Shown piece after piece: positions 1-5,702 of a DNA stretch of 38,519 nt (positions are counted from its first letter, which is position 1; each line of letters starts with the position of its first letter). The notes under the pieces were generated by a model, which saw only the letters and a program-made list of their open reading frames with translations, did not search any database and had not been told where the DNA came from. The stretch is from an uncultured Planctomycetota bacterium. GTDB taxonomy: Bacteria > Planctomycetota > PUPC01. The DNA lies in contig CAZBCO010000195.1 in assembly GCA_964490295.1 (NCBI GenBank), positions 1 through 38,519 on the forward strand, read 5' to 3'. The translations under genes and the position numbers were made by a program.

Positions 1-319
1 AGCGGCAGCCGGTTGGCGTGTTAGTAAATGCACCCGCGAACTAGATTCCGGTAAAGGTATTGCTGCAGCGCAACTGGAGCGTTCAAGCAGCGCAAGCAAA
101 TCGCAGGGCAAGTACGCTCCATTAGCCAAATACCTGCAAAACTTACCGAAAGAAACACAATCGGTCTGCATTAGCATATCAGATGTTGAGGACATCATTA
201 AGTCCGATTTGCCGGCAAGCGCGAAGCAGCATGATGCCTATTGGCGTAATACCACTCACAATCCACTTGGCGTCGCAATAGCGGCAGCCGGTTGGCGTGT
301 TAGTGAATGCATCCGCGAA
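1..319 (+). repeat. 40-nt imperfect direct repeat (1-40 and 280-319) bracketing a 239-nt lower-GC segment, all in frame with rpoC
   Basis: agcggcagccggttggcgtgttagtAaatgcaCccgcgaa versus agcggcagccggttggcgtgttagtGaatgcaTccgcgaa. Identity is 38/40. Spacing is exactly 279 nt (93 codons). Both mismatches are nonsynonymous (K/E, T/I). Confidence 0.9.
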
Positions 320-2305
320 ATTGTCGGCGCCCGCATCGAACGCATCTCGACCATCAACCCGCTGTGGTGCATGTTCGACAGCGGCGCCCGTGGTAGCGCG
401 ATGCAGATCCGCCAGATGGCCGGGATGCGCGGCCTGATGGCCAAGCCGTCGGGCGAAATTATGGAGACACCGATTAAGGCGAACTTCCGCGAAGGCCTGC
501 CCGTGCTGGAATACTTCAGCTCGACGCACGGCGGTCGCAAGGGCCTGGCCGACACCGCCCTGAAGACCGCCGAGTCCGGCTACCTGACCCGCAAGCTGGC
601 CGACGTGGCCCAGCAGGTGGTGGTCGGGATGCAGGACTGCGGCACCACCAACGGCATCACCAAGACCGCAGGCACGGTGGGCCTGGCCAAGAACATCTAT
701 GGCCGCGTCGCGGGCGAAACGGTCATCGACCGCAAGAACGATACGTTGATTGTCGAAGAAGGCCAGGTGATCACCGCCGATATCGCCCGCGCGGTTGAAG
801 ACCTCGGCTTTGACAGCATGAAGGTGCGCTCGCCCCTGACCTGCGAGGCGTCCAAGGGCATCTGCGCCCGATGCTACGGGATGGACCTCTCGACGCAGCA
901 GTTGGTCGAAGAGGGCTTGGCGGTGGGCATCATCGCCGCCCAGTCGATCGGCGAGCCGGGTACCCAGCTCACCATGCGGACGTTCCACATCGGCGGCGTC
1001 GCCACCACAGCCGGCTCCGAGCCGGACCGCGTGGTGGCCCCCGCGGCCGGAACCATTCACTACGAGAACATCGTCAGCGTCGAAGGCCCGGAAGGCGACC
1101 ACGTGGTGCTGAACCAGAACGGCAGCCTGGTCCTTCGCGACGCCGAGGAGCACGAGTTGGGCACCTACCCGATGCGTATCGGCGCGAAGCTGCTGGTCAA
1201 GGACGGCGGCAAGGTCTCGGCCAAGAAGGTGCTGGCCACCTGGGACCCGCACATGAGCCCGATCGTCACCGAGAAGAGCGGCACGGTACGCTTCATCGAC
1301 ATCGAAGAAGGCGAGACGATGCGGAAGGAGATCGACTCGGGCGGTTCCGAGCGTTCCGTGATTGTCGAGCACAAGGGCGACCTGCACCCGCAGATTATGA
1401 TTGAGGACCGCAAGGGCGACATTCTGGGCATCTATTCGATTCCCGAAAAGGCCTATATCGAGGTGGAAGAGGGCGAGTCGGTCAAGGCCGGAGCGCTCTT
1501 GGCCCGTACCCCGCGCCAGATGGGCCGCACCCAGGACATCACCGCTGGCCTGCCGCGCGTCACCGAGCTGTTCGAGGCCCGCAAGCCGAAGGACCCGGCG
1601 ATTATGAGCGAGATTTCGGGCATTGTGCAGCTCGGCGAGCGGAAGCGCGGGCGGCGCTCGATCATCGTCCGCAACGATGCCGCCGATATCGAGCAGGAGC
1701 ACCTGGTACCCCAGGGCAAGCGCCTGCTGGTCACCGCCGGCAGCCCGGTGCGTGAGGGCGATCCGCTGGTCGACGGCCCGATGGTCCCGCACGACATCCT
1801 GCGCATCAAGGGCGAAGAGGAGCTTCAGAAGTATCTGCTGAACGAGGTGCAGAACGTGTACCGCTTCTGCGGCGAAGAAATCAACGACAAGCACATCGAG
1901 GTGATCATCGGCCAGATGCTGCGCAAGGTGGAGGTGGGCGAGGACGTGGGCGACACCGGCCTGCTGCCCGGCTCCATCGTCGATAAGTTCGAGTTCCGAA
2001 CCGAGAACGAGCGGGTGGTGGAGCAGGGCGGTCGCCCGGCGAGCGCGTCGTCGCTGTTGCTGGGCATCACCAAGGCCGCGCTCCGAAGCGAGAGCTTCAT
2101 CTCCGCGGCGTCGTTCCAGGAGACCACCAAGGTGTTGACCGAGGCGGCTCTGGCCGGAAAGCGGGACGACCTGACCGGCCTGAAGGAGAACGTGATTCTT
2201 GGACATATGGTGCCGGCCGGGACCGGGTTCCACAAATACCGTAACGCGTTGATGAAGAAGGAAGAAGAGCTGCCCGAAGATGATACCACCGAGGCAGCCG
2301 GTTAA
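2..2305 (+). CDS. rpoC: DNA-directed RNA polymerase subunit beta-prime, C-terminal part (5' end outside window; first ~106 codons atypical)
   Basis: Frame is open from nt 2. Motifs seen: [143 protein letters not shown]. Stop TAA at 2303-2305. Confidence 0.95.
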
Positions 2306-5389: not shown

Positions 5390-5562
5390 GGCCCCGTTTG
5401 ATTTTCGGACGGAACCGTGTCTAATGAATAACTTACGGCGATTTTCTTTTGCCCGCGCGATTTGCACGGCACTATATCTTGACGTTAGTAAATTGCTAAC
5501 ATACACCATAATGTTTTTACATTTTTTTACAACTCGGCTCGTCATAAACTGTCGATTTTCAC

Positions 5563-5590
5563 TTGACGGACGGCTTTGGAGTTCTATAAT
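5563..5590 (+). promoter_or_regulatory. Near-consensus sigma70-type promoter for the S10 operon
   Basis: TTGACG (5563-5568), 16-nt spacer, TATAAT (5585-5590). A/T-rich tract upstream (atgtttttacatttttttac). About 105 nt upstream of the rpsJ ATG. Leader contains hairpin GTTCGC-tggt-GCGAAC (5643-5658). Confidence 0.6.
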
Positions 5591-5702
5591 GAGCATCTTT
5601 TCACCTTTGGGGTACCGGGTTTACGGTGCTTCGGAGGGCTGAGTTCGCTGGTGCGAACGACGCTTGGAACGGGCCGCAAGGCGACTGGATTGGAGAGGCT
5701 GG

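Follow-up and report, generated by a model that had tools for sequence, protein, structure and literature searches.

Probable alternative allele of a tandem DUF7662 insertion in the RNA polymerase beta-prime subunit of a Planctomycetota family

Results

The start of the contig

The window, by which we mean the whole stretch of DNA analysed (38,519 nt), comprises positions 1 to 38,519 of the forward strand of contig CAZBCO010000195.1 (C195), from an uncultured Planctomycetota bacterium (GTDB lineage PUPC01; GenBank assembly GCA_964490295.1). The assembly consists of 412 contigs, with 93% completeness and 4.1% contamination. Window nucleotide (nt) 1 is the first base of C195, and the contig opens inside rpoC, the gene for the beta-prime subunit of RNA polymerase (RNAP), with a low-GC stretch at nt 1-319 that encodes modules of the protein family DUF7662 and is read in frame into beta-prime. 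We regard this stretch, at a probability of roughly 0.8, as the 3'-terminal part of an alternative allele, foreign in composition, of a beta-prime insertion that is specific to the family and is exchanged as a cassette. The features at this end of the window, compared with contig C206 of the same genome, are as follows.

1..40, + strand: direct repeat, copy 1; tail of the preceding module copy, cut at the contig end
41..103, + strand: inter-module linker, with 'GIAAAQLER' (nt 56-82) apparently in place of the 'IVGARIER' / 'GkIxGAxIE' strand that follows other modules, judging from the linkers of relatives and from the alignment
104..346, + strand: complete DUF7662 module of 81 amino acids (aa; QGKYAPL...IVGARIERI), the last of the array; recognized by Pfam PF24698, by our own hidden Markov model (HMM) and in an AlphaFold2 (AF2) model
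280..319, + strand: direct repeat, copy 2; 38/40 identical to copy 1
319..320, + strand: allele breakpoint, inside the last module and just ahead of its final strand; allele-specific with low GC at third codon positions (GC3) to the left, 100% identical to C206 to the right
320..408, + strand: segment of 89 nt shared at 100% identity with the 3' end of C206 (C206:3473-3561), where the allele paths merge
320..2305, + strand: rest of rpoC, from the segment before the bridge helix to the stop codon, of native composition; Pfam RNA_pol_Rpb1_4 and Rpb1_5

An initial annotation, made from the letters alone, had described a direct repeat, an open frame and a drop in GC content here, and our analysis bore out all three. 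The repeat copies at nt 1-40 and 280-319 agree at 38 of 40 positions with a start-to-start distance of 279 nt, a pair for which the chance expectation is 3.4e-13 per 3 kb; the two differences, at nt 305 and 312, are both nonsynonymous (E/K and I/T), and the repeat ends at nt 40/319, beyond which the following 20 nt match at only 4 of 20 positions. No stop codon interrupts frame +2 between nt 2 and the end of rpoC at nt 2305, and the frame gives 767 aa of C-terminal beta-prime. The GC content of nt 41-280 is 0.44-0.48 (120-nt windows) against 0.60-0.73 downstream, and GC3 (20-codon windows) stays at 0.35-0.60 as far as nt ~319, then rises to 0.75-0.95. The same annotation had counted 1.14 tandem copies of the module, a figure that we do not retain, as the partial copy is simply one that has been cut by the end of C195.

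The module itself had been likened to small stand-alone hypothetical proteins with the signature 'KYxPL...LPxSA...WW...AGW', and a profile search with the 106-aa translation confirmed this family as Pfam PF24698 (DUF7662), matched at residues 39-101 with an E value of 1.1e-8 and 35.2 bits (cut-off 26; profile positions 2-58 of 72). Our own HMM, a profile from stand-alone DUF7662 proteins (75-100-aa members), scored the window module at 76.5 bits with an envelope of aa 35-115. Six positions are conserved at >=90% in a 59-sequence alignment (A1), namely L11, L36, P37, W47, G63 and W64, and the window module has all of them. Stand-alone DUF7662 proteins terminate in '...AGWRVsxvDxxxxtVtFxR', and the alignment pairs their last strand with 'IVGARIER'. 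The tail of the module had originally been placed at the repeated 40-mer; according to this alignment and the predicted last beta-strand, the module runs on through 'IVGARIER' (nt 320-343). Because 'IVGARIER' is the terminal strand, the composition break falls inside the last module rather than at its edge. It had also been cautioned that part of the 40-mer could be native rpoC, as E. coli beta-prime presumably reads AAANDRVSK at the equivalent place. This resemblance is an apparent coincidence, since the homologue of E. coli beta-prime 628-708 is the rim-helix region, which lies upstream of the insertion on C206.

Modules in beta-prime arrays are 80-93 aa each and follow the pattern (K)YxPLxxxL ... 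IExIlGxxLPxSAxxxxxYWxDTxHNPLGxAIAxAGWRVxrLdrdxxGkIxGAxIE. There are two units per array in eleven beta-primes, three in G003 and L019 (the latter being P0152) and five in P0151, and DUF7662 was the only domain found in a Pfam scan of the insertions. By comparison of sequences, the linker that follows the truncated first copy in the window is the counterpart of the inter-module linker of these relatives.

Two versions of the insertion in one genome

Contig C206 (3,561 nt) ends in 89 nt that are identical to window nt 320-408. It carries the last part of rpoB, followed by an rpoC frame that opens at the start codon and covers 901 aa, and between 'SVADRVMQELK' and 'IVGARIER' it encodes ~140 residues that make up two diverged modules (...HNPLYMALAHAGWRVAG... 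and ...YWRDTAYNPLGLTLTCVGWRVSR...). These score 31.0 and 14.6 bits with the stand-alone DUF7662 profile and lie below the cut-off of the Pfam model. The C206 insertion is of native composition (GC3 0.86 vs 0.93 in the remaining gene). Two different sequences converge on one base, window nt 320.

This branch was followed in public sequencing runs that hold the stretch, X1 and X2 from two studies (0.90 of sampled words) and X3 (0.37), which were compared as k=31 contigs. In X1 and X2, a contig over nt 229-349 has 0 differences from the window, at depths of 4.5 and 4.3, and crosses 319/320; in X3, a contig over nt 163-336 crosses the same point at a depth of 2.6. X1 and X2 also contain a 255-letter loose end that joins at nt 320, the final 30 letters of which are those of C206 ahead of the junction. 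Because the run contigs carry each sequence into nt 320, both paths represent real DNA in the same samples. The contig shared by the two paths, nt 320-447, has a depth of 21.3 in X1 and 6.1 in X3, with downstream rpoC at 18-20 and variant letters from nt 409, and the low-GC path accounts for about one-fifth of the depth in X1 and X2 and about two-fifths in X3. The run contigs of the low-GC path begin at nt 7-10. At window nt 409-470 and 937-990, contigs of other organisms pile up on conserved rpoC at depths from hundreds to ~1,800 with many variant letters, and because of this the depth there is uninformative for this genome.

The consensus rpoC of this genome is C206 continued by C195 from nt 320, and window nt 1-319 is a minority cassette of foreign composition. 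The low-GC form is either a minority allele or that of a co-occurring sister population. The initial annotation had offered a chimeric contig end as one of its alternatives. This suggestion is half right: the join is real DNA that run contigs cross, but at its start C195 takes the less abundant arm of a fork, the majority arm being on C206.

A second variant of the low-GC module was present in the runs at nt 95-258 (16 differences, depth 4.2), and may be a neighbouring tandem copy or come from another strain; in X3, its letters at nt 167-228 sit on the contig that abuts the junction. Among the 14 differences listed for this variant, eight change the amino acid, 12 are transitions (all four kinds) and two are transversions. 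A diversity-generating retroelement target was considered for this variation and rejected, as the 14 listed differences are not confined to adenine positions; no reverse transcriptase search was made.

The composition of the window piece was then set against that of other insertions for which DNA was available (n=12). These had GC3 values of 0.70-0.92 vs 0.81-0.94 for the rest of each gene, and the window piece, at 0.51 vs 0.88, was a compositional outlier. The next strongest outlier was L019 (0.70 vs 0.92), in which the whole three-module insertion is depressed. Relatives carrying the segment in native codon usage, which had been put forward as the mark of an ordinary lineage-specific insertion, were therefore found for the insertion as a class; the low-GC allele still departs from them.

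The same dimorphism in a sister genus

Two long contigs from different metagenomes, L019 and L021, belong to a sister genus and show a comparable pattern. The DNA identity of their rpoC flanks is 0.91-1.00, mostly 0.97-1.00, over ~720 codons on the left and ~640 on the right, and that of their insertions is 0.59-0.73, with one module more in L019. At conserved residues of the insertion, third-position identity was 0.25-0.52, and synonymous sites are therefore saturated. The L021 insertion is identical to that of genome G001. On the right-hand side, identity resumes 8 nt ahead of the G codon of GARIER in L019 and L021, compared to 6 nt in C195 and C206, and the sequence just after the breakpoint, GGCGCCCGCATCGAACGC, is the same in both genera; on the left-hand side of the L019/L021 insertion, similarity fades within the first ~90-100 nt. 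Homologous recombination in conserved flanks, replacing the insertion as a block, would produce such a pattern, and the pair shows that sharply different insertion alleles in near-identical rpoC are a recurrent natural state in the family.

Across pairs of two-module beta-primes, the insertion was less conserved than its 150-residue flanks in 55/55 comparisons, with a median of 0.46 vs 0.71. Saturated synonymous divergence between alleles combined with conserved core residues points to old, functional cassette lineages that are exchanged by recombination, and not to rapid point mutation.

Distribution in the family and site in beta-prime

Using the C206 region as the query, the whole insertion was matched in 7/9 other genomes of the family, and genomes from other families matched the conserved flank only or nothing. 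The G005 insertion, which is the most canonical, found matches in 8/10 family genomes (G000 included) vs 0/15 genomes in the other four families of the class. One of the two family genomes that gave no match has no match to that part of rpoC at all, and in the other (G006:C24 nt 1-604, L035) the contig begins 28 residues past the junction; these two misses do not show absence, and the start of the G006 contig is a further assembly break at this point. Every assembled beta-prime of this Planctomycetota family has two, three or five tandem DUF7662 modules, read in frame with the remainder of the protein. Three rpoC genes from sister families read '...ELKNDTRDGQPYVNPIWLM...' straight through, with a 10-residue loop and without the insertion.

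Alignment with the beta-primes of close relatives thus placed the insertion at the same site across the family. A recent tandem-domain insertion at a lineage-specific site had been the first alternative of the initial annotation, and the insertion part of this proposal was upheld. Its recency was not, given the 8/10 family genomes, and is retained for the low-GC cassette only. The insertion itself is old and was already present in the family ancestor; a recent and foreign origin seems to apply to the low-GC cassette alone.

As far as '...VMQEL', the C206 protein can be aligned with E. coli beta-prime 628-701/708 and the corresponding region of many solved beta-primes, and the right flank aligns with the segment ahead of '...SDSGARG' in another solved chain. 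On these alignments, the array replaces a short surface loop at about E. coli beta-prime 702-720. We take this site to be immediately behind the second rim helix of the secondary channel, ahead of the F-loop and bridge helix.

Two beta-primes carried further segments elsewhere in the protein. That of G002 (L011, G002:C1) has an extra ~300 aa (...AAVIDRHVRRGMKLRV...) ~300 codons upstream of its DUF7662 array, within the Rpb1 domain 3 region, with no Pfam match; G008, of the same genus, is without it. P0015, a family-type beta-prime of 1353 aa, has an extra ~200 aa at residues ~950-1150, in the Rpb1 domain 5 region, which also had no Pfam match and in which a GIY-YIG-looking motif (VYKF...YAGQT...R...EY) was seen by eye.

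Relationships of the window module

An exhaustive search of representative proteins with the 106-aa translation returned 429 hits at E <=1e-3, none above ~51% identity. None of the top four (P0001-P0004) is a polymerase; each has a length in the range 769-1,314 aa, 7-10 DUF7662 modules and the signature ...AWWANSxxxPQG... Together with P0005, they form an uncharacterised class of stand-alone repeat proteins (up to 1,314 aa, 7-10 modules) with low-complexity linkers and adjacent modules that are nearly identical. In the 36 hits that were scanned for context, DUF7662 occurred most often as CBS + DUF7662 + DUF4268, and also with HEPN_Swt1, NERD, Mrr_N, DprA/SLOG and DUF6884. Plasmid genes matching the module are annotated as GIY-YIG, HNH and DUF4268 proteins.

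At the level of single modules, the 12 best matches of the window module among the 263 modules compared were all from beta-prime, with the first outsider at rank 13. The closest was module 5 of P0151 (56% identity over 78 residues). The native C206 modules were absent from the 30 best matches of the C195 module. In a quick tree, all 34 beta-prime modules formed one group with a single outsider, P0098 (DUF7662 plus two Fis-type helix-turn-helix (HTH) domains), at a Shimodaira-Hasegawa-like approximate likelihood ratio test (SH-aLRT) support of 93. Within this group there are sub-groups of first modules (13 rows) and of second modules (13 rows), and the window module lies outside both, placed without resolution alongside the extra modules of P0151 and L019 and the three modules of G003. 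It has the beta-prime signature YWRxTxHNPLG and not WWANSxxxPQ. On the stand-alone profile, it is also the beta-prime module with the top score, 76.5 bits vs 14.6-69.1 for the others. The window module thus groups with polymerase modules and, as judged from these comparisons, does not appear to derive from the genome's own native modules. A gene fusion with a stand-alone gene, the second alternative of the initial annotation, finds no support, as both the 12 best matches and the tree grouping point to beta-prime modules.

Among the searches for a donor, the 'longer' one returned three beta-primes at 47-50% best-segment identity. Phages gave six records at 31% and plasmids nine at 32-39%, and viral contigs held no close relative. 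A second metagenome scan for the DNA of P0151 returned five other loci instead.

Predicted fold of the module

The 81-residue module was modelled by AF2 from the 59-row alignment with a mean predicted local distance difference test score (pLDDT) of 93.9 and a predicted template modelling score (pTM) of 0.81. The topology is H-E-H-H-H-E-E, with helices at residues 5-12, 25-32, 39-48 (split) and 54-61 and strands at 20-24, 64-70 and 75-80, and 'IVGARI' forms the last strand, the second of a beta-hairpin. The model shows the order helix-strand-helix-helix followed by a beta-hairpin wing, with one extra helix before the hairpin. This suggests a winged-helix-like module fold, although structural matches were below safe thresholds.

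Further along the window, the spacer at nt 5390-5660, between fusA and a ribosomal-protein gene (start at 5664), is visibly low in GC and holds only short open reading frames on both strands.

Discussion

Our study describes two sharply different versions of one beta-prime insertion, both on contigs of the same genome assembly. We count as demonstrated how the array is built, the two paths with the depth of each, the return of the pattern in a sister genus and the predicted fold. To account for them, we propose that the surface loop after the second rim helix was replaced in this family by a tandem DUF7662 array, mostly of two modules and in some members of three or five. The array behaves as a cassette: it evolves much faster than the rest of rpoC, varies in copy number and is replaced as a block by recombination, the right-hand crossover falling where the DNA for the last strand, 'I(V/I)GARIER', is conserved at the nucleotide level. 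The population would then hold two versions, a majority form of native GC with two degenerate modules (C206) and a minority form with at least two near-identical low-GC modules. The assembler would have taken the minority path into C195 and halted in the 279-nt tandem repeat.

Several results weigh against this proposal or limit it. The contigs that cross the junction extend 30 nt (X1 and X2) or 17 nt (X3) past 319/320, which is below a 31-nt bridging rule, and they come from k=31 assemblies and not from raw reads. Continuity over this junction, which had been named at the outset as the point to check, was found in the contigs of X1, X2 and X3. Nothing from X4, a run of raw reads, fell on nt 1-300, which is no evidence in either direction. 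An rpoC variant that is ~10% diverged is present at nt 1354-1500 at a depth of 3.1. Upstream extension of the low-GC allele found no further copy in the genome, either by DNA or by Pfam family (there was one weak, unrelated match on C52, E 0.59), and no relatives for such an extension were seen in metagenome contigs (query window nt 2-421) or viral contigs. A donor was not found in the representative, 'longer', phage and plasmid searches, and the best match of the module was the 56% noted above. The tree is a quick one, of 94 rows and 84 columns, with most of its forks unresolved. As to the fold, Foldseek gave no match at E <=1e-3, its weak rows being mostly winged-helix DNA binders with RepE first at E 0.27. 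VIA-align placed RepE first (Z 5.8, root-mean-square deviation 2.6 A, 69 residues) and Pi second (Z 5.2), followed by CtsR, Stn1 and CooA/CRP, with only two chains at Z >=5 and none at Z >=8. A context model of the whole two-module insertion with its flanks was poor (pLDDT 58, pTM 0.39), although in it two rim helices lead into two modules of the same topology. Finally, the modules are close to neutral in net charge (median +1, range -4 to +7), which neither backs nor excludes nucleic-acid binding.

The explanation that survives best beside our own, and partly overlaps it, is that the low-GC array is real but belongs to a co-occurring sister species or population, and was joined to this genome across the conserved flank. 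Because a ~10% diverged rpoC variant exists downstream, the low-GC path could possibly come from such a population. The low-GC path has a depth of 3-4.5, compared to ~17 (by difference) for the C206 path, C206 provides a complete alternative for this genome, and the flank GGCGCCCGCATCGAACGC is identical even between genera, so that the graph paths of relatives would merge there. Set against this, the contig over nt 320-447 is shared without a difference and its depth is the sum of both paths. In the sister genus, moreover, the dimorphism sits in flanks that are 97-100% identical over >4 kb on long contigs, so dimorphism within a lineage does exist. We therefore consider a cross-population join to be a possible but rather unlikely explanation.

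A fresh capture, in which a stand-alone or mobile-element DUF7662 gene was newly inserted into rpoC and then duplicated in tandem, would suit the foreign GC3 of 0.51 and the score on the stand-alone profile, which exceeds that of any other beta-prime module, and tandem DUF7662 arrays do occur outside beta-prime (P0001-P0005). The nearest relatives of the module, however, are beta-prime modules in all 12 top matches, its signature is that of the polymerase modules, searches of viral contigs, phages and plasmids turned up no close relative, and an array was in place at this site in the ancestor of the family. These points make such a capture improbable. It is more improbable still that the low GC is not foreign and that the genome's own native modules merely expanded by tandem duplication. 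The 279-nt repeat does indicate a recent tandem duplication within the allele, and copy number varies in the family; duplication accounts for the repeat, however, and not for the composition or for the divergence from C206, whose modules have a GC3 of 0.86 and are missing from the 30 best matches. Lastly, the position of the segment right at the end of a contig, the assembly being fragmented and slightly contaminated, the sharp composition break and the chance of ~1 in 6 that an unrelated join would be in frame and in the same orientation (our own estimate, listed among the points in its favour) would fit a pure assembly artefact gluing an unrelated stand-alone DUF7662 gene to rpoC, but this is largely refuted by the presence of the junction in k=31 contigs assembled independently for three runs (two studies), by a module of beta-prime type complete with the beta-prime-specific inter-module linker, by a break at the same codon as the allele breakpoint of another genus, and by the position of that break inside a folded domain whose last strand is on the rpoC side.

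Lineage-specific insertions in beta-prime are well known, including SI3/beta'i6 in the trigger loop of E. coli and beta'i2 of Thermus, and such RNAP insertions are usually regarded as ancient, fixed clade markers drawn from two or three domain types. A catalogue of them was reportedly compiled by Lane and Darst in 2010. The DUF7662 array resembles other beta-prime insertions in being an in-frame array of independently folded domains in a surface loop of an essential subunit, restricted to one lineage, in the tandem repetition of one domain type, and in its place beside the secondary channel, as for SI3. A more recent catalogue of lineage-specific RNAP insertions (Alvarez-Carreno et al. 2024, PMC11515920) gives beta'-uD4 as residues 638-806 in the E. 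coli column of its domain table. Section 2.4 of the same source (PMC11515920) names seven locations for beta-prime insertions: two in bD2 and one each in bD4, bD5, the N-terminus of uD5, bD6 and bD7. The array site lies inside beta'-uD4 and is not among these seven in the text of that catalogue, the supplements of which may list rare variants (PMC11515920). The array further differs from the insertions catalogued there in being built of winged-helix-like DUF7662, where the text names HABAS/SBHM, BEAN/BBM2 and sLC as insert types, and in its family-level age, where the text infers that lineage-specific insertions ceased late in bacterial evolution (PMC11515920). A copy number of two to five and block replacement between near-identical genomes also set it apart from catalogued insertions. 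Our literature search, at the level of listings and passages, returned no description of a beta-prime insertion at this site that is of winged-helix type or comes from a planctomycete, and it returned no paper mentioning DUF7662 and no published function for the family.

Compared to other proteins of PF24698, which occur as stand-alone proteins of ~80 aa, arrays and fusions, the beta-prime modules share the family core positions (L, LP, W, GW) and the tendency to form tandem arrays. They differ in forming a group of their own with the signature YW.DT.HNPLG.AIA.AGWRV...GkI.GA.IE, and in sitting in a polymerase instead of being joined to nuclease or sensor domains. The best structural matches, the winged-helix domains of the plasmid initiators RepE (2z9o) and Pi (2nra), share the helix-strand-helix-helix-hairpin order. 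However, sequence identity to them is 12-20%, the module has the extra helix before the hairpin and a neutral charge, and a shared fold is no proof of DNA binding.

What the array does can be approached by analogy. There is about an even chance, in our estimation, that it serves as a solvent-exposed platform to which proteins or nucleic acids bind where the secondary channel opens. A macromolecular partner is most likely because DUF7662 is elsewhere joined to nucleases, to HEPN and CBS sensor proteins and to Fis-type HTH domains (P0098). The array could modulate entry into the secondary channel or interact with downstream nucleic acid, and block replacement would reflect selection for altering its surface. 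A bolder and doubtful suggestion is that the array is a horizontally exchanged polymerase surface, variable in copy number and kept polymorphic within populations by conflict with phage or with other factors that dock on or sense RNAP, the domain having come from modules that serve nuclease-type defence proteins as sensors or for targeting (HEPN, NERD, Mrr_N, DUF4268, GIY-YIG and HNH contexts). If true, this would amount to balancing or diversifying selection on a discrete module of an essential housekeeping enzyme.

In summary, the array departs from the usual view of RNAP insertions in having another fold, a site outside the text of the catalogue, two to five copies and sharply different alleles in two genera. 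Such cassettes break assemblies, as in three genomes here, and may leave rpoC of mixed alleles in metagenome-assembled genomes that are used as sources of phylogenetic markers. If our reading is confirmed, the uncharacterised DUF7662 family gains a testable context from its presence in beta-prime, the loop behind the rim helices would be indicated as a hotspot for insertions in Planctomycetota, and a defined surface of an essential enzyme would be swappable by recombination in this Planctomycetota family, in the manner of an accessory locus.

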